Source: Christensenellaceae bacterium (GTDB lineage Bacteria; Bacillota; Clostridia; Christensenellales; Borkfalkiaceae). From it: a stretch of 64,000 nt of DNA. Below are positions 610 through 35,201 of this stretch, in pieces (within the stretch, counting starts at the first letter, position 1; each line of letters starts with the position of its first letter). Location of the stretch: NCBI GenBank assembly GCA_045587245.1, contig JAZNBU010000018.1, positions 10,775-74,774 of the forward strand, read 5' to 3'. A program made the translations under genes and the position numbers. The notes under the pieces were generated by a model. It was not told where the DNA came from and made no database searches. It saw only the letters and a list, made by a program, of their open reading frames with translations.

Positions 610-1923
610 ATGGCACTTTTTTCGGGACTTAGCGAAAAACTTAATCATATATTTAGCAAACTGACAAAGCACGGCAGACTTACTGAACTTGAAATCAGGA
701 CTGCAATGCGTGAAGTTAGAATTGCGCTTTTAGAAGCCGACGTTAACATCTCAGTCGTCAAGTCTTTCGTTGCAAGAGTTAGTGAACGTGCTGTAGGGCA
801 AGAAATTCTAAAGAGTTTAAGCCCAACCCAACAAGTTATAAAGATTGTTAATGAAGAGCTCATTGACCTTATGGGCAGTGCCAACAGCAAACTTGCAGTG
901 GATAGCAATCCACCGACGGTTATAATGATGGCAGGACTTCAAGGTGCTGGTAAAACAACGCTTGTTGGTAAGCTCGGCTTAATGCTTAAAAAACAAGGCA
1001 AAAAACCACTTTTAGTTGCTTGTGACGTTTATCGTCCAGCTGCTATCAATCAATTAAAGATTGTTGGCGAAAAGGCAGGTTGCAGTGTTTTTGAAAAGGG
1101 GCAAGGAAACCCTGTTAAAATAGCAATGGAAGGCGTTAAGCACGCTAAATCTTTTGGTTTTGATACTGTTATTATCGACACGGCAGGTAGACTTCAAATT
1201 GATGAAGACTTAATGCAAGAACTTGAAGAAATCAAGAAAAGCGTTAACCCAAGCGAAATCTTGCTCGTAGTTGACTCAATGACTGGTCAAGTTGCAGTTG
1301 AGGTGGCAGACACCTTTAACAAGAGATTAGAAGTAACGGGTTTGGTTTTAACAAAACTCGACGGTGATACGAGGGGTGGTGCAACCCTATCGATGAAAGC
1401 CGTAACGGGCAAGCCAATTAAGTTCTGTTCTGTTGGCGAAAAACTTGGTGATTTAGAGCCTTTCTATCCAGACCGTATGGCAAACCGAATTCTCGGTATG
1501 GGAGACGTGCTTTCGCTGATTGAAAAGGCGCAAGACGCAGTCACTGAAGCAGAGGCGAAAAAGCTAGAAGAAAAGTTTAGGAAAAATTCTTTTACGTTGG
1601 ATGACTATCTTATGCAGTTTGAAACAATGAAGAAGATGGGTGGCATAAAAGATATACTTGCAATGCTTCCTGGTATGGGGAATAAGTTCAAGATAAACGA
1701 AAGCGATATCGACGAGAAAAAGATGGCAAGAACAAAGGCAATAATTCAGTCGATGACGATGTATGAGCGTGAAAACCCACAAGTAATAAACTCATCACGC
1801 AAAAACCGAATAGCAAAGGGCAGTGGCACAAGCGTTCAAGAAGTCAATAGACTGCTTAAACAGTTTGAGCAAAGCAAAGTGATGATGAAACAAATGAAAA
1901 ATAATAAAATGTTTAAATTTTAA
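610..1923 (+). CDS. ffh: Signal recognition particle protein Ffh
   Basis: SRP GTPase motifs GLQGAGKTT, DTAGRL and TKLDGDTRGG, with a Met-rich C-terminal M domain. Confidence 0.97.
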   Translation: MALFSGLSEKLNHIFSKLTKHGRLTELEIRTAMREVRIALLEADVNISVVKSFVARVSERAVGQEILKSLSPTQQVIKIVNEELIDLMGSANSKLAVDSNPPTVIMMAGLQGAGKTTLVGKLGLMLKKQGKKPLLVACDVYRPAAINQLKIVGEKAGCSVFEKGQGNPVKIAMEGVKHAKSFGFDTVIIDTAGRLQIDEDLMQELEEIKKSVNPSEILLVVDSMTGQVAVEVADTFNKRLEVTGLVLTKLDGDTRGGATLSMKAVTGKPIKFCSVGEKLGDLEPFYPDRMANRILGMGDVLSLIEKAQDAVTEAEAKKLEEKFRKNSFTLDDYLMQFETMKKMGGIKDILAMLPGMGNKFKINESDIDEKKMARTKAIIQSMTMYERENPQVINSSRKNRIAKGSGTSVQEVNRLLKQFEQSKVMMKQMKNNKMFKF

Positions 1924-1946
1924 TAAAAAACAAGGAGAAAAGAACA

Positions 1947-2243
1947 ATGGCAGTAAAAATGAGATTAACAAGAATGGGCGACAAGAAATCACCTTTCTAC
2001 CGTATCGTAATTACAGACAGCAGAAACGCACGTGATGGAGCATATATTGACAAAGTAGGTCACTATAACCCAATCGCACAACCAGCAGAAATCGTTATCG
2101 ATGAGGCTAAGGCAAAGGATTGGCTCTCTAAGGGCGTTCAACCAACAGAAACAGTTAAAAACATACTCGTAAACAAGGGTATTATTCCAAAGTCAGACAA
2201 GCTTTCGCCAGCAAAGACGAAGGTTCGTAAGTCTTCTAAGTAA
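1947..2243 (+). CDS. rpsP: 30S ribosomal protein S16
   Basis: N-terminus MAVKMRLTRMGDKKSPFYRIV is typical of bS16. AAGGAG RBS; conserved position after ffh. Confidence 0.95.
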   Translation: MAVKMRLTRMGDKKSPFYRIVITDSRNARDGAYIDKVGHYNPIAQPAEIVIDEAKAKDWLSKGVQPTETVKNILVNKGIIPKSDKLSPAKTKVRKSSK

Positions 2244-2266
2244 TAATAGCTTTATAAGGTGTTATT

Positions 2267-2512
2267 ATGATAGAACTTATAAAGTACGTTGTTAATCGTT
2301 TCGCTGAAAAACCAGACCAAATCGACTATGATATAGTCAGCGATGGCAAAAACGTAAACGTGACGATTACTCTTGATGCAAGCGATATGGGTAAAGTTAT
2401 AGGTCGCCAAGGCAAGATTGCAAAGGCGCTCCGTACTTTAGTGCGTGTTGGTTCGCAAAAAGAAAACCTAAAATATAATATTGAAATCGTAGAACGCGGG
2501 GAAAAGGAATAA
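2267..2512 (+). CDS. KH-domain RNA-binding protein (YlqC-like)
   Basis: 81 aa with the KH GXXG segment VIGRQGKIAKAL. Conserved position between rpsP and rimM. Confidence 0.85.
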   Translation: MIELIKYVVNRFAEKPDQIDYDIVSDGKNVNVTITLDASDMGKVIGRQGKIAKALRTLVRVGSQKENLKYNIEIVERGEKE

Positions 2513-2525
2513 TTTCCCCGTTTTT
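2497..2525 (+). terminator. Hairpin plus T-run overlapping the KH gene stop (internal attenuator or partial terminator)
   Basis: CGGGGAAA ... TTTCCCCG stem followed by TTTTT at 2521-2525. Confidence 0.5.
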
Positions 2526-2540
2526 CTATCAAAAGAAAAA

Positions 2541-3050
2541 ATGCAAGAAACGTTAAAAATAGGCTTAATCTTAAAGCCACAAGGAATAAAAGGGCAACTA
2601 AAAGTTCAGCCCTTAACCGACGATATAAATCGTTATAAAAATTTAAAAGAGATTATAATCGACCAAAAAGTTTACCGTGTGACAGGCGCTATTATCAGTG
2701 GTCAAACGGTGTTTTTACAGCTTTTTGGCGTTAATGATAGAGATACTGCGGAAACCTTCCGTGGTAAGTTTTTGCACGTTAAAAGGGAAGATGCCGTTGC
2801 CTTAGAAGAAGGCAGATATTTTGTTGTAGACTTAATCGGTTGCAACGTTATAAGCAAAGAAAAAGGCGTTATCGGCGAAATTATTGATATATTCTCTTCT
2901 CGCACAGACGTTATAACCGTTAAATGCTTAGATGGAAGAGTTATGCGTTTTCCTTTTCTAAAAGATTTAGTTGAAAGGGTGGACGTAATAAACAAAGAGT
3001 TTGTTGTTTTTGATAAGCGTTTAAGCGAGGTTTCATGCTATGAAGATTGA
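2541..3050 (+). CDS. rimM: 16S rRNA processing protein RimM
   Basis: 169 aa. N-terminus 'IGLILKPQGIKGQLKV' is typical of RimM. Lies between the KH gene and trmD. Confidence 0.85.
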   Translation: MQETLKIGLILKPQGIKGQLKVQPLTDDINRYKNLKEIIIDQKVYRVTGAIISGQTVFLQLFGVNDRDTAETFRGKFLHVKREDAVALEEGRYFVVDLIGCNVISKEKGVIGEIIDIFSSRTDVITVKCLDGRVMRFPFLKDLVERVDVINKEFVVFDKRLSEVSCYED

Positions 3051-3705
3051 CATTTTAACGCTGTTTCCAGAAATGTTTGCGCCACTTAAAACAAGTATTA
3101 TAGGCAGGGCTGTTGAGAGCAAAAAACTCGAGATAAACGTTATTGATATAAGAGAATACACCCACGATAAACACAATAAATGTGACGACACGCCGTTTGG
3201 TGGTGGTGCAGGTATGGTTATGATGGCTCAGCCTATTGCAAGCGCAATAGATGCTATTGATAAAGACCATAATGCAAGGCGCATTTTCTTGTCACCAAGG
3301 GGCAGAACTTTCAGCCAAAAAATTGTTTTAGAATACGCTAAAGAGGAGCACTTATTGTTTCTTTGTGGGCATTATGAAGGGGTTGACCAAAGGGTTATCG
3401 ACCTATATATTGATGAGGAATTATCTATTGGCGACTTTGTTTTAACGGGGGGCGAAATACCTGCAATGGCTGTTGTTGATGCCGTTGCAAGATACGTTGA
3501 CGGGGTTATTAGCCACGATTCACTTGACCAAGAAAGTTTTGCAAGTGGTATGCTCGAATACCCACAATATACTCGTCCACAAGAGTTTATGGGCTTAAAA
3601 GTTCCAGAAGTTTTAACGAGTGGTCACCACGCAAAAATCGAGGAGTGGAGAAGGCAAAAATCATTAGAAATAACCCAAAAAAATCGTCCAGATTTGATTA
3701 AGTAG
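3040..3705 (+). CDS. trmD: tRNA (guanine37-N1)-methyltransferase TrmD
   Basis: 'IDILTLFPEMF' N-terminus and 'GHYEGVDQRV ... LSIGDFVLTGGE' SPOUT knot motifs. Overlaps rimM by 11 nt. Confidence 0.95.
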   Translation: MKIDILTLFPEMFAPLKTSIIGRAVESKKLEINVIDIREYTHDKHNKCDDTPFGGGAGMVMMAQPIASAIDAIDKDHNARRIFLSPRGRTFSQKIVLEYAKEEHLLFLCGHYEGVDQRVIDLYIDEELSIGDFVLTGGEIPAMAVVDAVARYVDGVISHDSLDQESFASGMLEYPQYTRPQEFMGLKVPEVLTSGHHAKIEEWRRQKSLEITQKNRPDLIK

Positions 3706-3713
3706 GAGACAAA

Positions 3714-4547
3714 ATGAAGCATTTACAATGGTTTCCAGGTCATATGACGGCAGCAATGCGTATGATGGAAGAAAACTTAAAAGCAGTTGATGGGGTTATG
3801 ATTGTTCTTGATGCAAGAGCGCCAAGGGCATCTCTTAATTCTAAACTCGACAAACTTTTTGTCAATAAAAAGGTGCTATACGTTCTTAATAAATGCGACC
3901 TTGTAGAGCCTCTGGACATAAAAAGGACTATTAATGAGTTTGGTCAGGAAAATAAAGAAGTTATAGCAGTCAGCGCAATGGATAAAAGAGCAGTTGATTT
4001 GCTTTATAACAAGATTTTTTCACTTTTACAAGAAAAGCTAGAAAACAATAAAAGAAAGGGCGTGTTTAAGCCTATCAGAATTATGGTTGCAGGTATTCCA
4101 AACACGGGCAAATCAACAATAATAAACGCACTTTGCGGTGGCAAAAAAACGGTCACGGGCAACAAAGCTGGCGTGACAAAGGGCAAGCAATGGGTAAGGC
4201 TAAGAGAGCTTGAACTTTTAGATACTCCAGGCACAATGCCACCTGCTTTTGACAATCAAGTTTTGGCAAAGCACCTTGCATATATCGGCAGTATGAACGA
4301 TGCAAATATCGACTTTAACGACCTTGCTTATGAACTTTTAGCCGAGCTAAAAGACAGATATCCTGACCTATTAAAAAACAAATATAAAATTGACGATTTA
4401 GATGTTGAAACGCTTGAACTTTTTAACGCAATTTGCGTTCGCCGTGGCTTTTTGAGAAAGGGTGCAGAGTTTGATTACGAGCGCTGTGCAACGGCGATTA
4501 TAGACGACTTTAGAAAGGGAAGAATAGGTAAAATTATTCTCGATTGA
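3714..4547 (+). CDS. rbgA: Ribosome biogenesis GTPase A (RbgA/YlqF)
   Basis: 'QWFPGHM' N-terminus. Circularly permuted GTPase motifs NKCDL, GIPNTGKST and DTPG. Confidence 0.9.
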   Translation: MKHLQWFPGHMTAAMRMMEENLKAVDGVMIVLDARAPRASLNSKLDKLFVNKKVLYVLNKCDLVEPLDIKRTINEFGQENKEVIAVSAMDKRAVDLLYNKIFSLLQEKLENNKRKGVFKPIRIMVAGIPNTGKSTIINALCGGKKTVTGNKAGVTKGKQWVRLRELELLDTPGTMPPAFDNQVLAKHLAYIGSMNDANIDFNDLAYELLAELKDRYPDLLKNKYKIDDLDVETLELFNAICVRRGFLRKGAEFDYERCATAIIDDFRKGRIGKIILD

Positions 4548-4548
4548 T

Positions 4549-5160
4549 ATGAATAAACTTTTATACGAAAGAAAGCATTTAAGTGAAGGAAAAAAGTATA
4601 TAGCAGGCGTTGATGAAGTGGGCAGAGGGCCACTCGCTGGGCCTGTTGTTTGCGCATCGGTAATAATGCCTTTAGATGACATAATCGAAGGGGTGACCGA
4701 CAGCAAAAAACTTTCTGAAAAAAAGAGAGAAAAACTTTATCCTTTAATAAAGGAAAAGGCTATTTGCTATTCTATTCAAGAGATATCCCAAGAAGAAATT
4801 GATGAAATAAATATCCTTAACGCTGTTAAAAAATGTATGGTAAAAGCAGTTGAAAGTTTGAGTGTTAAGCCAGATATAACGCTTGTTGACGGCAATGATA
4901 CAAACCTACCTATCAATGCTGAGTACATAGTTAAGGGCGACTTAAATAGTTATACTATAGGCTGTGCATCGATTTTAGCAAAGGTGTATAGGGATAACTT
5001 AATGAAAGAGTATGCTAAAGAGTTCCCAGAATACGGCTTTGAAAAGCATAAGGGGTATGGCACGAAAGTGCATATTGATAAAATTAAGGAGATTGGACCT
5101 TGCAAATTGCACAGAAGAACTTTTATAAAAAACTTTTGGGTAGAGCCGGAGAAAAATTAG
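4549..5160 (+). CDS. rnhB: Ribonuclease HII
   Basis: 'GVDEVGRGPLAGPVV' catalytic motif, 203 aa. Confidence 0.93.
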   Translation: MNKLLYERKHLSEGKKYIAGVDEVGRGPLAGPVVCASVIMPLDDIIEGVTDSKKLSEKKREKLYPLIKEKAICYSIQEISQEEIDEINILNAVKKCMVKAVESLSVKPDITLVDGNDTNLPINAEYIVKGDLNSYTIGCASILAKVYRDNLMKEYAKEFPEYGFEKHKGYGTKVHIDKIKEIGPCKLHRRTFIKNFWVEPEKN

Positions 5161-5465
5161 CAGTAGATTTTTTAAAAAAGAAAGGCTTTAAGATATTAAA
5201 AACCAACTATAAAACGCCCGTTGGAGAAATAGATATTATCGGTGAAGATAACGGAGCCATAGTTTTTGTTGAAGTCAAGACGAGAACGAGCGATAATTAT
5301 GGCTTGCCAAGAGAGGCAGTTGATAGAAAAAAACAAGAAAAATATTATAAAACTGCCACGTTTTACTTGCAAAAAGAGAGAAAAATGGATAGCAGTTGCA
5401 GGTTTGACGTAATAGAAATAGAAAATGGGCAAATAAATCATATTTTTAATGCATTTGGGGTGTAA
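5100..5465 (+). CDS. YraN family (UPF0102) endonuclease-like protein
   Basis: 'GEIDIIGEDNGAIVFVEVKTR' motif. The TTG start at 5100 has AAGGAG 8 nt upstream. Overlaps the rnhB 3' end; an alternative TTG lies at 5136. Confidence 0.8.
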   Translation: MQIAQKNFYKKLLGRAGEKLAVDFLKKKGFKILKTNYKTPVGEIDIIGEDNGAIVFVEVKTRTSDNYGLPREAVDRKKQEKYYKTATFYLQKERKMDSSCRFDVIEIENGQINHIFNAFGV

Positions 5466-5470
5466 AACGC

Positions 5471-5499
5471 TTGCAATAAATGAAAAAATATGATATTAT
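5471..5499 (+). promoter_or_regulatory. Promoter of rplS
   Basis: TTGCAA 5471-5476, 17 bp spacer, TGaTATTAT extended -10 (TATTAT 5494-5499). Confidence 0.6.
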
Positions 5500-5503
5500 A
5501 TTA

Positions 5504-5548
5504 AACGCTTTGAGCGTTCCTCTTGCAAAAAAGTTGACAATGAACGCT
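5504..5548 (+). promoter_or_regulatory. rplS 5' leader with mutually exclusive pairings (possible L19 autoregulatory leader)
   Basis: AACGCT (5504-5509) pairs with AGCGTT (5513-5518). Alternatively AGCGTTC (5513-5519) pairs with GAACGCT (5542-5548), just upstream of the GGAGG RBS. Confidence 0.35.
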
Positions 5549-5570
5549 AATAAATTGGAGGTAAAAGCAA

Positions 5571-5918
5571 ATGAACGGCATTATTGATGCAATCAATCAA
5601 GAAAACTTAAAAAGCACAATTCCACAATTTAACGTTGGCGACACTGTTAAGGTAATGGTAAAGGTTATCGAAGGTGACAGAGAAAGATTACAAGCCTTTG
5701 AAGGTATCGTTATCGCAAGAAAACACGGTGGCATTAGCGAAACTTTCACTGTTAGAAGACTTTCTTTCGGTGTAGGCGTTGAAAAGACATTCCCAATCCA
5801 CTCGCCAAAGGTTGCAGACATTCAAGTTGTAAGACACGGTAAAGTACGTCGTGCAAAACTTTACTACTTGCGTGCAAGAACAGGTAAGGCTGCAAAAGTT
5901 AAAGAAATTAAAAAATAA
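5571..5918 (+). CDS. rplS: 50S ribosomal protein L19
   Basis: 115 aa. 'FNVGDTVKV ... [13 protein letters not shown]' is typical of bL19. Confidence 0.95.
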
Positions 5919-5936
5919 TTTATCTTTAAGAAAAAC

Positions 5937-5969
5937 GAACTTGTCAAAATTTGGGCAAGTTCTTTTTTT
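5937..5969 (+). terminator. Rho-independent terminator after rplS
   Basis: GAACTTG ... CAAGTTC stem followed by TTTTTTT (5963-5969). Confidence 0.8.
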
Positions 5970-6120
5970 ATATTTTTTATTTTGGCGCTAGCAATAAAAA
6001 AGTAGCAAAATACTTGTTAAAAATTGAATTTTCCTATATATTATGTTTACTTTTAAAATAAAATATTATATAATAATATAATAATGAGCGAGTTTTGGCT
6101 TTTTTAAGGGGATAAGAGAA

Positions 6121-29079: not shown

Positions 29080-29481
29080 ATGGTAGAAGAAGGTAAAAGC
29101 CTAAAACAATATTGTAAAGAAGCCAAAAAGCGCTTAAAAGGTGGATTTTGGCAAAGTTATCAAAAGAATTTAACCGAAAATATAGAGCGTGCTGAAAAGG
29201 CAGGCATTTCAACTTCTAAGGTAAAACAATATTATACTGAAAGGGTGATTGAAAACATTAAAAATCGTGATGATGAAAAAGAAGAGTTTTATAATAAAGT
29301 TAAGAAACTTCTTTTAGAAGAAGGCGAAGTTCATAATGCGATAGGCAGGCTAACCGATGAAAAAATTTTTAATACGCTTAGTTATGATGAAAAACAGAGA
29401 TATACGCTATCCCTTTCGGAAAAATATTTAGAGGCTGTTGAAAGGTTTAGAAAAGAGCAAGCTCTAGAAATTAAAAAATAA
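29080..29481 (+). CDS. Hypothetical Lys/Glu-rich 133-aa protein
   Basis: An ORF with a GGAGA RBS and no recognisable motif. Predicted mostly helical from its composition. Confidence 0.55.
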   Translation: MVEEGKSLKQYCKEAKKRLKGGFWQSYQKNLTENIERAEKAGISTSKVKQYYTERVIENIKNRDDEKEEFYNKVKKLLLEEGEVHNAIGRLTDEKIFNTLSYDEKQRYTLSLSEKYLEAVERFRKEQALEIKK

Positions 29482-30131: not shown

Positions 30132-30497
30132 CTATGATGTAAAGGTCTCTCGGTTTTCATTAAACCCTAAACTAATAAGTAGGGCAGTGTTTACCTTTTG
30201 CATTTTTAGGGGTGAAAGCTCGCCAATCTTTTCTTTTATACGCCTTTTATCAAGCGTTCTAATTTGTTCTAAAAGTATAACCGAATCTTTTAAAAGTCCA
30301 AACTCGTTTGCACTTAGTTCTATGTGCGTGGGCAGTTTTGCTTTATTGAGTTGGCTTGTAATGGCGGCAGCGATAATTGTAGGGCTATATTTATTGCCCG
30401 TGTCGTTTTGCACAATTAAAATAGGTCTAACCCCACCTTGCTCACTTCCAACAACAGGGCTAAGGTCGGCGTAATAAAGTTCTCCTCGTTTTATCAT
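30132..30497 (-). CDS. mazF: MazF/PemK (EndoA-like) endoribonuclease toxin
   Basis: '[30 protein letters not shown] ... KLPTHIEL ... [14 protein letters not shown]' is near-collinear with B. subtilis EndoA/NdoA as I recall it. It has its own GGAGA RBS. Confidence 0.92.
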
Positions 30498-30626
30498 AAT
30501 ATCTCCAAGCCTATTAAAGTAAATCCCACTTTATAATATGTATTTAATATAAAAATGGGTTAATTTTACTCGTATTTTTACATACAAGATTATGACCAAA
30601 CGAAAATATTTTTATACACTAATTAA

Positions 30627-30662
30627 TAAAAAAAGAAAACGCCAACCTAAAAAGGCTGGCCT
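30627..30662 (-). terminator. Terminator of the DUF1538-like/PII-like operon
   Basis: On the minus strand, a GCCAGCC ... GGTTGGC stem (one G-U pair) is followed by TTTTCTTTTTTT. Confidence 0.75.
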
Positions 30663-30679
30663 TTTAAGATAGTTAAATA

Positions 30680-30997
30680 TTAATCTACTTTCTTATCAAA
30701 ATCAAGCGTGCACATTTCAACAGGCATATAAAAACAAATTGCGTGGGCAGGTGTTCCGACCCCAGCCTTTTCTTTAACGCTTTCCATAATCTTTTGTGCC
30801 ACCTCTTTTTCAGCAATGGTTAAAACTATTTCTTTTTCTGGGTCAATAGTGATTCCGAAAATAGTTTGTGGATTAGGAACAGAGCCTCTTGCGTTTAAGA
30901 TTGTTGCACCGGTCGAACCGTTTTCTCTTGCTATATCAACGATTTCAGTGGCAAAGCCAGCGTTTACAATAATATATAAAACTTTTAAATCTTTCAT
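30680..30997 (-). CDS. PII-like (GlnB-fold) signal transduction protein, paralogue 1
   Basis: 105 aa with a beta-alpha-beta-beta-alpha-beta hydrophobicity pattern ('LYIIVN', 'GATILNARG', 'EIVLTIAE', 'AICFYMPVE') and a short non-canonical T-loop. Confidence 0.65.
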   Translation of the reverse strand: MKDLKVLYIIVNAGFATEIVDIARENGSTGATILNARGSVPNPQTIFGITIDPEKEIVLTIAEKEVAQKIMESVKEKAGVGTPAHAICFYMPVEMCTLDFDKKVD

Positions 30998-31012
30998 TTT
31001 TTTCTCCTTTAA

Positions 31013-31330
31013 TTAAAACAATAATTTTTGGATAGGCACGCTAAACGCAATGCCTGTGTTCGCTTTGCTGAATTTGTATTCTTTATATAAAATTTCCATA
31101 ACCTTTTTAGCATTTTCGGTTGGTAAAAGGCAGGAAATAATAGCCTTTTTTTGGTCGGCATCAAGCCCAAAGGCTTGCGCCAAAATGCTTTTTCCAACCG
31201 AGCCACGCCCATAAATCGTGTCGATAGAGTGCCCACCGTTTTCGATAAGTAGGTTAGTAAACTTATCTCTTAATTTGGTGCTACCTATTATTACGAAATA
31301 CTGTAAGCCGTTTATTATTTTTTCTTCCAT
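31013..31330 (-). CDS. PII-like (GlnB-fold) signal transduction protein, paralogue 2
   Basis: 105 aa with the same fold pattern ('YFVIIGS', 'SIDTIYGRGS', 'AIISCLLP', 'GIAFSVPI'). Its start overlaps the membrane-protein gene by 16 nt. Confidence 0.55.
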   Translation of the reverse strand: MEEKIINGLQYFVIIGSTKLRDKFTNLLIENGGHSIDTIYGRGSVGKSILAQAFGLDADQKKAIISCLLPTENAKKVMEILYKEYKFSKANTGIAFSVPIQKLLF

Positions 31331-32916
31331 AATCTTATCCTCACTTTTTTTGAGTTAGATTTTTTTACGTCTTTAGTATCGTTACTATCAACGAATTTTT
31401 GAAGGTCATCAAAAGATTCATTTGCAAGTTGTTTGCTTGCCTTTTTAGAACGAATATCGTATATAATGCCAAGCGCTTGAATGGCAATAAGTGGAGTGAC
31501 GGAAATAAAAGATATTATTCCAAATCCGTTTGTAATAATAGACATCGTGCTATTTGTCATCGTTGCCACCGACTGTGCAATGCTAAGTGTTAGTGGGGTT
31601 AAAAAAGCTGATGTCAATGCGCCACCCGTCACGCCCCCAGAGTCAAAGGCCAGCCCAACGAACAGTTTGGGCGTAAACTTCATCATCACTATTGATAAAA
31701 GATATAGTGGCACTAAAAAGTAAAGTATATTAATTTGCGTTAAAATCTTAAGAACCGAAAGTAAAGAAGCAAAGCCAATACCGATAGCAAGTGTGACAAT
31801 AATAGTAGCCTTCTTAATGTGGCCGTTTGTAATCTCTTCGATTTGAGAGCCAAGCACAACTACTGCAGGTTCTGAAACGGTTATGGCAGCGCCTAAGATA
31901 AAGCCAACGATAAGTAGTAAGTAAGGGAAAAAGTCAGGTCTAGATGAATCAAAGAAGACCCCGCCAATATATTGCCCGACAAAACCAAAACCATAGTCAA
32001 TGCCAGACAAAAAGATTAAAAGCCCAAAATAAACAGGTATAACGCCCAGCATTAAACGCCAAAATTCACGCTTTGGCAGTTTGATAACAAAAAGTAGCAC
32101 AGGCACGGCGATAAGCACTATAGGGAAAACTGCTAAGGCAACGTCTAAAAGGTTGGCCACCACGATATCACCTAGCGCAAAGCCCGTGGTGATAGTGTAT
32201 GGATTAGCAGGGGGTATGCTACCGTTTATGGTCTTTACTATAATGCCGTAAAGAAGAACTGTAACGATAGGGCCTACCGAAGCAATACCGATTATACCAA
32301 ACGAATCGTCGTTTTTCTTACTTTTAGAAAAGGTGGTGGAAATACCGATTCCAAGCGCCAAAATAAAAGGCACGGAAACGTCTCCAGTAGTTGCGCCACT
32401 TCCATCAAAGGCAAGAGAAATAAACTCAGGTGGTGCAAAAATAACCAGAATAAAAACCAGTGAATAAAGAACGCCGAAAACAAGTTTTACGTTTAAGTTT
32501 TTAATCATCCTTACAAGCGCTAAAGCAACACCCATTCCTATACCTGTGCCGGTAATCCAAATAAACAGCGTGCTACTGACTATAGGAAGAATAACGGTAA
32601 TTTGGCGAGCAAGGACAGAAAGCGCAGGCTCTGCAACTGTTGAAAGCAAACCGAACAAAAAACCAAACGCTAAAACGAAAAACAGTTTGTTATATTTAGA
32701 AAAAGACGAGCCAAGCTTACTTCCGATAGGCAAGATGCTTGAGTCCAAACCTACAAGGAAAAGTGCTTGCCCAATAATAACCGAAAAATATCCAACTAAA
32801 ACCTTGCCATATAATGCTGGGTTAGAGAAAGGAAATAGAATAAGGCAAATTGCAATAATTATAGCGAGGGGGATTGAAGATAAAGTTGTCTCTTTAATAG
32901 TTTTTAAAAGTTTCAT
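31315..32916 (-). CDS. Polytopic membrane protein with two DUF1538-like repeats
   Basis: 533 aa with an internal duplication. The first half has 'VAEPALSVLARQ' and 'AFDGSGATTGDVSVPFILALGIG'. The second half has 'VSEPAVVVLGSQ' and 'AFDSGGVTGGALTSAFLTPL'. I recognise the motif as DUF1538-type from memory only. Confidence 0.65.
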   Translation of the reverse strand: MKLLKTIKETTLSSIPLAIIIAICLILFPFSNPALYGKVLVGYFSVIIGQALFLVGLDSSILPIGSKLGSSFSKYNKLFFVLAFGFLFGLLSTVAEPALSVLARQITVILPIVSSTLFIWITGTGIGMGVALALVRMIKNLNVKLVFGVLYSLVFILVIFAPPEFISLAFDGSGATTGDVSVPFILALGIGISTTFSKSKKNDDSFGIIGIASVGPIVTVLLYGIIVKTINGSIPPANPYTITTGFALGDIVVANLLDVALAVFPIVLIAVPVLLFVIKLPKREFWRLMLGVIPVYFGLLIFLSGIDYGFGFVGQYIGGVFFDSSRPDFFPYLLLIVGFILGAAITVSEPAVVVLGSQIEEITNGHIKKATIIVTLAIGIGFASLLSVLKILTQINILYFLVPLYLLSIVMMKFTPKLFVGLAFDSGGVTGGALTSAFLTPLTLSIAQSVATMTNSTMSIITNGFGIISFISVTPLIAIQALGIIYDIRSKKASKQLANESFDDLQKFVDSNDTKDVKKSNSKKVRIRLWKKK

Positions 32917-33088
32917 TTTGTAGCTCGCTTATTTTGAATTTTGCCTATTTTTAAATATAAATTTGAGTTTTTATACTTAAAAAACATTATAACACATATA
33001 TACACAAAAGTAAAGGGCGTACGTTAAAACTTTCTGATAGTAATCAAGAAAAAATCTTGAAAAATTAACAATAAAATAATAATTACTA

Positions 33089-33117
33089 TTGACATATTTT
33101 TTTGGGTGGGTTATAAT
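33089..33117 (+). promoter_or_regulatory. Consensus promoter of the 674-aa gene
   Basis: TTGACA 33089-33094, 17 bp spacer, TATAAT 33112-33117. Confidence 0.65.
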
Positions 33118-33176
33118 ATTTTAGGTAGTTATTTTATGAATAAAATAAAAAGAAAAATAATGTTAAGGAGAATATT

Positions 33177-35201
33177 ATGCAAAGTAATATCACAGTGCCT
33201 GGTTTAACGCCGGTAGAAAGTAAAAGAGATGGCAACAATTATGAGGCAACCGTTTGGAATAGAAAATATACTATATCTGATTCTCCATTCTTTTCTTCAA
33301 TAATTTCAGGTGGCGAGGAAATCCTTGCAGGCCCAATTCGTCTTGTAGGTACTTGTTTTGGTAAGCCTATCGAATGGGAAGCTTGCGAAAACTTTGAGAT
33401 ATTAGGCACGGATGGTAAATCAAAAACTTTTGTTCAAACAACAAAGTTTAGAGAACTTGTTTTAAATACATCAATGCAAATTTTCTATGATGGTTGCGTT
33501 AAGTGTAATGCAAAGTTAATGCCAAAGTCATCTGCCATATCTGAAAATTTAGTTCTTAACGAACTCTTCCTTGAAATTCCATTTAAGAAAGAGTCTGCCA
33601 AAATGTATCAAATATATCCATTTGGCAACATTAAAATTAACGGCAAGGAAACTGTTGGCACTCCATCACTTTATGGTCTTGATTACGTGCCAAGTGAAAG
33701 TTTGGTTGCTCCATTCAAGCAAAACGTATATCTTGGCAATGACGATATAGGTATGTCAGTTTTCTTTGAAAGTGACGAAGGTTGGAGATATTTCCTTCCA
33801 AATAGAGTTATTGAAGTTCATAACAAAGAAGACCACGTTCTACTAAAAGTTCGTTTCTTAGACGAAGAGCATCTTGACTGGGTTGATAAGGGTGGCGCAA
33901 ACGGTGGCTACTTATTCCCAATCAACTTTGAGTTTGGTATGCAAGCAACACCTGTTAAACCATACATATCAAACAACTTCTTTGAAAAGAGTTATCACGC
34001 AGGTCAAGTAAGTTCAGCTGATAATGCAAGCGTGGCCCTTGATGCGCCATATAAAGAGGGTGATGATGAACTACTTATTGATGCACTCAAAAAAGAAGGC
34101 ATTGAAGTATTATACGTTCACGAACTTTGGAACGATATGCAAAACAGCTTTATGCTAACTGACAAAACTTCTGAAAGACTTAAAAAACTTGTTGAAGTTG
34201 CGCACTCTCGTGGTATTAAAATTGTTCCATATTTTGGGTATGAAATATCATCGCTTTCACCACTATTTAATAAAAAATTCTTATACAAATATAAAAAACG
34301 TTATTCAACAACTCACTATGAACTTTGGAAGTGCTTGTATTCAAGAAAACCATATCAAAGAGACTATAGTGTTTGCTATGCCTCAGATTATAGTGAAGTA
34401 TTCCTTGCCGGCATTGCTCGCATTATGGATGAATACCATATTGACGGAATATACGTTGACGGCACGTTTGCAATCACAGGGTGTATGAACTTAGAACACG
34501 GTTGCGGATACGTTGATAAAAACGGTAACGTTCGTCCAACGTACGACGTATGGCGCAGACGTGCGTTTGTTGAAAAACTTCACGACGTTGTTCATAGCCG
34601 TGGCGGTATAATCAATGCGCATACGGGTATGACTTTCCCAGCACCAACTTTAGCGTTCGCTGACAGCTTATATGATGGCGAAGTTATTCAACCATTTTTG
34701 GTAAAAGGATTGCTCGATAAAGTTCCAGAAGGGCACTTCCGTTCACTCTATACAGGTAAAACTGCAGGCGTTCCTATATCATATATAGCATATACAAACC
34801 CAACGCTATGGTCATTCCATCAATCACTTTCAACAATCGTTGCGTTTAACGTATTGCCAAGGGCAAACAACAGTATAGAAGACCTTAAAGAAGTTGCAAA
34901 GATTTGGCGTATATACGATGAGCTTCCTACTTCTAAAGCAGAATTTAAGCCTTTCTTCAATAACGACGTTCAAACGGATAACGAGAACGTTAAGGTAAGT
35001 TATTATGAACTCGGTGGCAAAATTCTTGCAGTTATTGCAAACTTCTGCAAAAATCCAACAGGCAAAACAGAAGTTAAGTTTGCTAAAAAGTATAATACTG
35101 CAACAAACAAGATGACAGGCGAAAAGGTAAAACTTGCTTGTGGCAATAAGATTACGGTTGAGTTTGATAACTTTGACTATATGATAGTAGGTCTTGAATA
35201 A
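33177..35201 (+). CDS. Cytoplasmic 674-aa protein, putative glycoside-hydrolase-like TIM barrel with an N-terminal beta-sandwich (family uncertain)
   Basis: Long ORF with a good AAGGAG RBS and no signal peptide. The C-terminal half has alternating beta/alpha character and an 'HIDGIYVDG' strand resembling GH-like barrels. The coding call is secure; the function call is weak. Confidence 0.4.
   Translation: MQSNITVPGLTPVESKRDGNNYEATVWNRKYTISDSPFFSSIISGGEEILAGPIRLVGTCFGKPIEWEACENFEILGTDGKSKTFVQTTKFRELVLNTSMQIFYDGCVKCNAKLMPKSSAISENLVLNELFLEIPFKKESAKMYQIYPFGNIKINGKETVGTPSLYGLDYVPSESLVAPFKQNVYLGNDDIGMSVFFESDEGWRYFLPNRVIEVHNKEDHVLLKVRFLDEEHLDWVDKGGANGGYLFPINFEFGMQATPVKPYISNNFFEKSYHAGQVSSADNASVALDAPYKEGDDELLIDALKKEGIEVLYVHELWNDMQNSFMLTDKTSERLKKLVEVAHSRGIKIVPYFGYEISSLSPLFNKKFLYKYKKRYSTTHYELWKCLYSRKPYQRDYSVCYASDYSEVFLAGIARIMDEYHIDGIYVDGTFAITGCMNLEHGCGYVDKNGNVRPTYDVWRRRAFVEKLHDVVHSRGGIINAHTGMTFPAPTLAFADSLYDGEVIQPFLVKGLLDKVPEGHFRSLYTGKTAGVPISYIAYTNPTLWSFHQSLSTIVAFNVLPRANNSIEDLKEVAKIWRIYDELPTSKAEFKPFFNNDVQTDNENVKVSYYELGGKILAVIANFCKNPTGKTEVKFAKKYNTATNKMTGEKVKLACGNKITVEFDNFDYMIVGLE

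Follow-up and report, generated by a model that had tools for sequence, protein, structure and literature searches.

A conserved operon linking a predicted DUF1538/UmpAB-family transporter to one or more PII-like proteins in Christensenellaceae and other bacteria

Few signal transducers are as widespread as the PII proteins. Members of the family control transporters, as in the pairs GlnK-AmtB and SbtB-SbtA, and few transporter partners (AmtB, SbtA, nitrate/urea systems) are understood. Here we examine a three-gene locus of a Christensenellaceae bacterium (GenBank assembly GCA_045587245.1, contig JAZNBU010000018.1, positions 10,775 to 74,774), in which a gene for a large membrane protein is followed by two small open reading frames (ORFs), hereafter PII-1 and PII-2. 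The window denotes the whole stretch of 64,000 nt, whose own coordinates are used below. An initial annotation, made from the letters alone, had read this locus as a transporter with dedicated PII-like partners. The question is whether this association is real and, if it is, what the transporter carries and what its partners sense. The three genes, in the order of their transcription, are:

31315-32916, reverse strand: membrane protein gene (ORF; 533 aa, fused double DUF1538, apparent A-B fusion, UmpAB family)
31013-31330, reverse strand: PII-1 gene (ORF; 105 aa, divergent, fast-evolving PII-like protein)
30680-30997, reverse strand: PII-2 gene (ORF; 105 aa, conserved PII-like protein, predicted ancestral partner of DUF1538)

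The membrane protein gene overlaps PII-1 by 16 nt, and a gap of 15 nt separates PII-1 from PII-2. The ORFs, the overlap and the gap are precisely as first described, and the four motifs quoted at that time are all present in the translation.

The association of the three genes is strongly conserved. In a scan limited to a single genome for each species, 80 loci (60-89% identity) were retrieved from Christensenellaceae, Oscillospiraceae, other Clostridia and Anaeroplasmataceae. Judged by hidden Markov models (HMMs) of the three families, 78 of the 80 exhibit the order double DUF1538, PII-1, PII-2 on one strand. One locus (L033) is uninformative, its contig ending about 200 bp past the membrane protein gene. 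Another (L048) was considered as an exception to the triad and discarded as such, its PII-1 gene being partly masked by Ns with the C-terminus still readable. The triad is present in all the informative loci (79/79). A reciprocal scan of metagenomes started from PII-2. Counting as informative the loci with 45% identity or more and sufficient DNA upstream, 12 were informative, and in all 12 the DUF1538 gene and PII-1 precede PII-2. Among the 80 loci we found no further conserved neighbour, apart from local synteny limited to the 5-8 closest relatives. Since no other gene is conserved around it, the triad appears as a self-contained module.

The linkage persists in relatives that are 29-37% identical, from other Clostridia and Alphaproteobacteria, with a varying number of PII domains. 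In Peptoclostridium, Paraclostridium and Vescimonas, a fused double DUF1538 gene is followed by one P-II gene of 222-224 aa containing two PII domains. In Methylocystis and Chelativorans, split DUF1538 genes are followed by a single PII of 112-122 aa. An exhaustive profile search for the PII-2 family yielded 919 clusters (at 50% identity) with E<=1e-10. Most of the best 150 representatives are about 200-260 aa long with two PII stretches, several have three, and all seven diverse representatives that were sampled (7/7) lie directly downstream of one or more DUF1538 genes. The triple-domain cluster that we examined comprises 39 members on many contigs. Three PII domains also occur in a different arrangement at loci L111 and L112 (3045-5765), where an extra PII-2-like ORF of 123 aa lies upstream, overlapping the start of the DUF1538 gene, and a 254-aa tandem PII protein is encoded downstream as well. 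Finally, on one contig (L107, 4001-6163), two DUF1538 repeats are encoded together with two PII domains in a single 720-aa ORF. Being a singleton on one contig, this fusion was downgraded from the strong "Rosetta-stone" evidence for which it might be taken. Together with the triad (79/79 loci, and 12/12 in the reciprocal scan), the distant relatives and the diverse members bear out both the proposal of a transporter with dedicated PII-like partners and the expected conservation of a DUF1538 gene with two PII genes. We consider it very probable that the module is indeed a transporter with PII-like regulators of its own. That the DUF1538-PII linkage is real and conserved across phyla we regard as settled.

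The genes surrounding these remote modules deserve a separate description. In Fastidiosipila/Saccharofermentanales metagenome-assembled genomes (L103-L106, about 1440-6023), a gene for a membrane H+/Na+ pyrophosphatase is followed after 31 nt by the double DUF1538 gene and by the gene of a 340-aa triple-PII protein, which belongs to the cluster of 39 members and whose third PII-like domain is weakly DUF190-like. These genes are convergent with an F-type ATP synthase operon. At L113 (6084-8248), the DUF1538 and triple-PII genes are followed on the same strand by genes for a 522-aa MgtE_N/CBS-domain protein and a DUF1003 protein, which may be further ion-transport-related partners. The next genes at L111 and L112 encode a type III glutamine synthetase (GS-III) and LrgA/LrgB.

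The PII domains of the family are not equivalent. Both the single PII of the proteobacterial systems and, in the tandem proteins, the C-terminal domain are of the PII-2 type (about 49-64 vs 16-34 bits). The mean identity to the window proteins over 77 loci is 70% for the transporter, 69% for PII-2 and 50% for PII-1. Because the PII-2-type domain recurs in these distant layouts, and because PII-2 is conserved to the same degree as the transporter while PII-1 is not, sequence comparison identifies PII-2 as the ancestral, constrained partner and PII-1 as a diverged, fast-evolving duplicate.

The family of the membrane protein is clear. Its 533-aa sequence exhibits a score of 362.2 bits (E = 8.5e-109) against Pfam PF07556 (DUF1538), for which the gathering score is 22.6 bits, and the match falls into two stretches covering both halves, so that the HMM check that had been suggested for it came out positive. 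The two halves are 28% identical to each other over 234 aa (E = 3e-18), which agrees with the internal tandem duplication originally noticed. Homologues of about 70% identity are widespread in Clostridia. Against the NCBIfam models of UmpA (NF041627) and UmpB (NF041628), the protein scores 164.2 and 135.6 bits, the equivalog cut-offs being 490 and 500 bits, respectively. Accordingly its sequence makes it a homologue of UmpAB, not an equivalog. It had been asked from the outset whether the protein might fall into an already characterised transporter family. The answer is divided: it is a member of DUF1538/UmpAB, but remains far below the equivalog cut-offs. We classify it on this basis as a putative secondary transporter of the DUF1538/UmpAB family. 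Comparison with the split genes of Methylocystis indicates how its halves arose. The C-terminal half matches gene B better than gene A (114 vs 78 bits), and the N-terminal half exhibits a slight preference for gene A (105 bits vs 93 bits for gene B). The 533-aa protein thus appears to be an A-B fusion of an ancient pair. The two distinct DUF1538 modules (A and B) typical of UmpAB are both present, in fused form, and the family comprises split as well as fused forms. The protein is divided as follows:

32224-32916, reverse strand: repeat A (aa 1-231; seven membrane crossings, N-terminus cytoplasmic; helix boundaries from the AlphaFold2 model)
31447-32175, reverse strand: repeat B (aa 248-490; seven crossings, orientation opposite to that of repeat A)
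31318-31446, reverse strand: C-terminal tail (aa 491-533; Lys/Arg-rich, cytoplasmic, low model confidence)

The AlphaFold2 model of the protein (pLDDT 79, pTM 0.78; residues 510-533 below pLDDT 50) contains broken helices in both repeats. Those of repeat A carry the motifs AEP (E96) and FDGSGATTGD (D171, D179), and those of repeat B carry SEP (E349) and FDSGGVTGG (D425). The model puts these motifs at the helix breaks H78-94/H97-109 and H163-176/H181-196 and at the equivalent places of the second repeat. The glutamate of (A/S)EP and the aspartate of the FD motif, which stands before a Gly-rich segment, do not vary among the nine repeats that were compared, which span Clostridia and Alphaproteobacteria. 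The positive-inside rule, applied to 49 family members with the helix boundaries of the model, gives 17.1 Lys and Arg residues in the loops assigned to the cytoplasm (23.1 with the tail, whose family mean is 6) vs 1.7 in the external loops, for a 7+7 arrangement with both the N- and the C-terminus inside. The linker (aa 232-247) is poor in these residues, and the charge bias flips between repeat A and repeat B. The 7+7 topology also agrees with the prediction of seven segments in UmpA and seven in UmpB (PMC5484666). We thus model the protein as a 7+7 inverted repeat with both termini cytoplasmic and with an invariant Glu and Asp in each repeat. Searches of the PDB with the protein sequence and with family profiles found no solved relative of DUF1538. 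MATE, GltPh/EAAT, CLC and VcINDY, considered as fold relatives after a Foldseek search of the PDB, were rejected (TM 0.1-0.2, probability <=0.3, best E-value 7.7e-3). As the model has no meaningful PDB match and the sequence searches no solved relative, the predicted DUF1538 fold is structurally uncharacterised, with the caveat that Foldseek can miss helical membrane folds.

The two small proteins are less easily recognised. Their scores against the Pfam P-II model (PF00543) are 17.3 bits for PII-1 and 19.4 bits for PII-2, both under the gathering score of 25. Most of their homologues match the same model at E<=1e-3 (42/60 in the PII-1 family and 50/59 in the PII-2 family). The proposed P-II check thus failed for the window pair itself and succeeded for most of its relatives. 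NCBI and JGI assign PII-2 homologues to the P-II family by name, "P-II family nitrogen regulator" being among the names in use. The two proteins are 25% identical to each other by BLASTP (E = 5e-8), and their family profiles align with 94% probability over 92 columns in hhalign; they are paralogues as divergent as had been supposed. The AlphaFold2 model of PII-1 (pLDDT 81.6) exhibits a beta-alpha-beta unit, a loop at residues 41-61 of low confidence and a second beta-alpha-beta unit, that is, the ferredoxin-like beta-alpha-beta-beta-alpha-beta fold with a long beta2-beta3 loop. In a Foldseek search of the PDB with this model, the top 50 matches are all from the PII superfamily (50/50; probability 1.00, TM about 0.6), including CPII, TTHA0516, SbtB and GlnK. 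The secondary structure pattern initially read from the sequence is thereby confirmed for PII-1. Profile searches of the PDB are far less sensitive here. The PII-1 profile reached no PII chain in the PDB, and the PII-2 profile gave weak matches (9p1x, E = 0.0035; TTHA0516, 0.034; 3dfe, 0.05; SbtB, 0.94). The top PDB matches of the latter profile (6.6e-11), the designed repeat proteins dTor_9x57R and dTor_3x57R (6xr1/6xr2), were dismissed as spurious. They arise from a 25-residue helix match summed over the repeats, a kind of false positive worth flagging in automated pipelines.

PII-1 and PII-2 differ from the canonical PII proteins in their signatures. We searched both for the T-loop uridylylation motif Y-[KR]-G-[AS]-[AE]-Y and the B-loop signature [ST]-x3-G-[DY]-G-[KR]-[IV]-[FW] (PROSITE-type patterns). 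Neither is present in either protein, nor is there a tyrosine at the uridylylation position. In a low-confidence hhalign alignment, PII-2 has TPAH in place of the GDGK of the B-loop. The T-loop of PII-1, taken as the beta2-beta3 loop of the model, comprises residues 41-61 (about 21 aa). Of the earlier description of these T-loops as short and non-canonical, the second adjective stands and the first does not. PII-2 matches the Pfam P-II model with its residues 5-94 at model positions 2-93, and the loops are of near-canonical length. Since the canonical signatures are absent and GlnB alone is not detectably similar, we classify both proteins by their sequences as PII-like, and not as GlnB/GlnK. 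The invariant residues of PII-2 cluster in beta2 (GxxGxT), at the base of the T-loop (NARGS) and in the B-loop (GxGTxxH), a distribution suggestive of a nucleotide-binding trimer. Its T-loop segment FGIxI(D/E)PEKEIV is conserved from Clostridia to Alphaproteobacteria. Three remote PII-2-like proteins (L100 and L101, 3977-4282; L102, 2621-2956) keep GITIDPEK, with no DUF1538 gene within their available flanks; the gene of one of these orphans is convergent with a heavy-metal P-type ATPase gene.

The expression signals around the three genes are those of a single unit:

32986-33014, reverse strand: promoter-like site (-35 TTTACT, 17-nt spacer, TG-extended -10 TATAAT; consensus scan, 10/12 matches)
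31338-31342, reverse strand: Shine-Dalgarno-like GAGGA for PII-1 (read from the sequence; within the 3' end of the membrane protein gene)
31004-31008, reverse strand: Shine-Dalgarno AGGAG for PII-2 (read from the sequence; within the 15-nt gap before the ATG at 30997)
30631-30660, reverse strand: intrinsic-terminator-like hairpin and T-run (scan; 8 pairs, 5 of them G-C)

The start of PII-1 is overlapped by the last codons of the membrane protein gene, and its GAGGA stands 8 nt from the ATG (31330). The terminator-like hairpin begins 20 nt past the PII-2 stop codon. As the upstream gene is divergent, the operon needs a promoter of its own. The extended -10 promoter and the terminator previously attributed to it were both recovered (33014-32986 and 30660-30631 in the direction of transcription). 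The number of promoter-like matches in the region is in no excess (10 vs 9.5 in shuffled sequence). Across six relatives, the -35, the TG and the -10 TATAAT are invariant, with variable spacer and flanking intergenic DNA. A search for a riboswitch or other leader with Rfam in E-value mode (30400-33300) gave two sub-threshold chance matches only. On these sequence features, the three genes form a predicted co-transcribed and translationally coupled module.

Several neighbouring genes of the window can be described here. Directly beyond the operon terminator lies a gene for a PemK/MazF-like toxin (30132-30497, reverse strand; Pfam 121 bits), which is also found after the triad in about seven close relatives. 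No recognisable antitoxin ORF is seen downstream of it or in the 182-nt gap upstream, where the sole ORF encodes 22 hydrophobic aa. On the other side of the operon, a perfect consensus sigma-70 promoter (33089-33117, forward strand; TTGACA, 17 nt, TATAAT; 12/12) points away from it and faces a gene for a 674-aa GH123-like putative glycoside hydrolase (33177-35201, forward strand). The -35 of this promoter is kept in relatives. Because it lies opposite the operon promoter, the intergenic region would be a divergent promoter region. Farther away, a 133-aa Lys/Glu-rich ORF with no Pfam match (29080-29481, forward strand) and the adjoining nitroreductase gene are kept in the five closest relatives.

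What does the transporter carry? The earlier statement that no substrate had been determined by experiment for DUF1538 no longer holds. Two DUF1538 proteins of Halomonas zhaodongensis, UmpA and UmpB, were reported in 2017 to form a heterodimer that in E. coli KNabc catalyses Na+(Li+,K+)/H+ antiport in a pH-dependent manner (PMC5484666). This activity was seen from a clone without any PII gene, and PII is not mentioned in that paper (PMC5484666). Saltwater cable bacteria also encode UmpAB homologues, for which a role in salt adaptation has been proposed (PMC10030654, PMC12093952). The pyrophosphatase/ATP synthase context of the Fastidiosipila-like modules fits an ion-cycling role linked to the energy state. 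By analogy with UmpAB, cation/proton exchange is our first candidate for the activity, with odds a little short of even. That UmpAB is active without a PII gene favours modulators over obligatory subunits as the role of the PII-like proteins.

Taken as a whole, we propose a cation/proton exchanger gated at its cytoplasmic face by a nucleotide-sensing PII-like hetero-oligomer as the best explanation of the module, with a probability of roughly 0.55. The invariant carboxylates, lying in the middle of the membrane, would form an ion or proton site, and the protein would exchange a monovalent cation for protons, as UmpAB is reported to do. PII-1 and PII-2 would assemble as a PII-type oligomer. This oligomer is probably mixed, because two and three differentiated PII domains recur in the family. 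The suggestion that the two proteins may act jointly or as a heterotrimer is to this extent consistent with the tandem and triple PII fusions. The oligomer would dock on the cytoplasmic face of the transporter through its conserved T-loops (FGIxI(D/E)PEKEIV in PII-2). An adenine nucleotide (ATP/ADP/AMP or a cyclic derivative) would be bound in the clefts between subunits; for the nature of this ligand we put the chances at even. The transporter would then be opened or plugged according to the energy or second-messenger state of the cell, as in GlnK/AmtB and SbtB/SbtA. An extended form of the proposal seems rather unlikely to hold in all its parts. It supposes that the asymmetric docking of a hetero-oligomeric PII-like sensor on an inverted-repeat transporter, which lacks C3 symmetry and resembles no solved structure in its fold, would be a new mode of PII-target recognition, with a single-chain, triple-domain pseudo-trimer in some lineages. 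In GlnK-AmtB and SbtB-SbtA, by contrast, one trimer sits symmetrically on another. Energy charge or a second messenger would then gate the module, a valve for cation/proton exchange that would be widespread among anaerobes.

Several observations weigh against this proposal. The UmpA and UmpB scores (164/136) are about a third of the equivalog cut-offs, so that the substrate of UmpAB is not simply transferable to the subfamily of the window protein. The functional data on the family were all obtained for UmpAB by one laboratory, in a single E. coli complementation system, and no independent replication was found in the literature searched. The neighbours in other lineages vary (ClC, GntP, PHO4, GS-III/LrgAB, MgtE_N-CBS) and indicate no single substrate; gene context therefore does not fix it. 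On the side of the sensor, the GDGK B-loop, the C-terminal Arg residues and the T-loop Tyr51 are absent from PII-1 and PII-2, leaving the ligand unassignable. Each family aligns to the single E. coli GlnB with a probability below 1% in hhalign, so that the residues of the ATP/2-oxoglutarate site are not transferable. As for the linkage, the three remote PII-2-like proteins without a nearby DUF1538 gene are 34-36% identical, and the 720-aa transporter-PII fusion is a singleton on one contig, possibly a frameshift or assembly artefact.

Part of this evidence would also suit a PII-like-gated DUF1538 transporter with a substrate other than Na+, K+ or H+. Candidates are small solutes usually under PII control, such as bicarbonate, ammonium and other metabolites of nitrogen or carbon, or else anions, whether organic or inorganic. 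The exchange of alkali cations for protons by UmpAB would in that case be a side activity or be specific to the UmpAB subfamily. The well-studied PII-transporter pairs all handle nitrogen or carbon, and CPII and SbtB, the best structural matches of PII-1, accompany inorganic-carbon transporters. The distance from the UmpA/UmpB equivalog cut-offs, the single laboratory and heterologous system behind the UmpAB evidence, and the presence of GS-III, PHO4, ClC and GntP among the neighbours in other lineages all lend this explanation some weight. However, UmpAB is the sole experimental datum for the family, the invariant membrane Glu and Asp suit the binding of cations or protons better than that of anions, and no nitrogen or carbon gene is consistently linked. 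The H+/Na+ pyrophosphatase and ATP synthase context and the occurrence in saltwater cable bacteria point the same way. We regard a different substrate as unlikely, but as an explanation to be taken seriously. The role of the small proteins could also be another one. They might be obligatory structural or activating subunits forming a cytoplasmic ring, like RCK/KTN on Trk/Ktr, instead of an inhibitory plug. Their strict co-occurrence and translational coupling with the transporter, the conservation of PII-2 to the same extent as the transporter, and the fusions that link PII domains with one another and, in one case, with the transporter would be expected of such subunits. The idea is nevertheless improbable, given that PII-1 evolves much faster than the transporter and that UmpA and UmpB alone gave antiport in E. 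coli with no PII gene (PMC5484666).

The signalling might even run in reverse: acting mainly as a sensor or anchor, the membrane protein would keep the PII-like proteins at the membrane, and their real targets would be cytoplasmic enzymes or regulators. There is a precedent among PII proteins, AmtB-bound GlnK controlling DraG, and the remote PII-2-like proteins lacking a DUF1538 neighbour indicate that the fold can act elsewhere. Within the subfamily, however, the PII-like genes never occur apart from DUF1538 where the sequence permits a test, and no third conserved gene accompanies the module in the 80 loci, which makes this scheme very improbable. As to an incidental adjacency, or small ORFs that are not PII-like at all, the window pair does score under the Pfam P-II gathering score and GlnB alone is not detectably similar. 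This last explanation is effectively refuted by the comparative data: the triad is kept across phyla, fold prediction and Foldseek agree on the PII superfamily, and most of the homologues match the Pfam P-II model. We thus retain the gated cation/proton exchanger as our preferred explanation.

We searched the literature (DUF1538, PF07556, UmpAB, and PII-like together with transporter) and found no paper describing a DUF1538-PII linkage, which is apparently unstudied. RefSeq already annotates a "DUF1538 domain-containing protein" beside a "P-II family nitrogen regulator". DUF1538/UmpAB has one characterised member and no solved structure, and a large PII-like family is strictly tied to it. This tie offers a regulatory handle on the DUF1538/UmpAB family. 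If our proposal is true, PII-type control extends to alkali-cation/proton homeostasis. The PII domains, which occur singly, in twos and in threes and are differentiated or fused, would be a natural experiment on the adaptation of a trimeric sensor to a target that is asymmetric. The module is frequent among Clostridia of the gut and rumen, in which energy conservation rests on ion cycling.

How does the module compare with known systems? UmpAB shares with it PF07556, two homologous DUF1538 modules and seven predicted transmembrane segments in each, the N-terminal half of the window protein resembling the first gene of the split systems and the C-terminal half the second. It differs in that the modules are here fused in a 533-aa chain and that the host is a gut anaerobe, not a halophile. 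CPII (the carboxysome-associated protein of Thiomonas intermedia, PDB 5d4n) is the best structural match of PII-1 (E = 3.9e-6, TM about 0.6). With a sequence identity of about 20% the likeness is at the level of the fold only, so that no ligand can be transferred from it. SbtB, like the proteins described here, is a non-canonical PII-like protein dedicated to one transporter and co-transcribed with it. It is among the best fold matches of PII-1 and a weak profile match of PII-2. In contrast to PII-1 and PII-2, which have no extension past about 105 aa, SbtB is encoded by a single gene and has a redox-sensitive C-terminal R-loop. SbtA has no sequence relationship to DUF1538, and neither its structure nor any other solved fold is matched by the DUF1538 model.

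A pair of divergent, adjacent PII paralogues is also known in NifI1-NifI2, a tandem that, as Dodsworth and Leigh are said to have reported in 2006, forms a hetero-oligomer acting on nitrogenase. A mixed complex would be expected in both cases, but the target of NifI is a soluble enzyme, and the NifI proteins keep the canonical PII motifs for nucleotide and 2-oxoglutarate. The likeness to GlnK-AmtB lies in a small PII-fold protein encoded in an operon with a transporter, and presumably in the docking of its T-loop on the cytoplasmic face. The conserved co-transcription typical of PII-transporter pairs has its counterpart here in the conserved gene linkage. GlnK, however, is a canonical PII protein with Tyr51 and a GDGK B-loop, sensing ATP/ADP/2-oxoglutarate, and these signatures are absent from PII-1 and PII-2. 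AmtB is a C3 trimer bound by a homotrimer of GlnK, whereas two non-equivalent PII domains (one to three elsewhere) accompany an inverted-repeat transporter here. The known theme of a PII protein controlling a transporter would thus be kept; what is new is a fold without a solved relative, the DUF1538 partner itself, and a sensor that comes with one, two or three PII domains.

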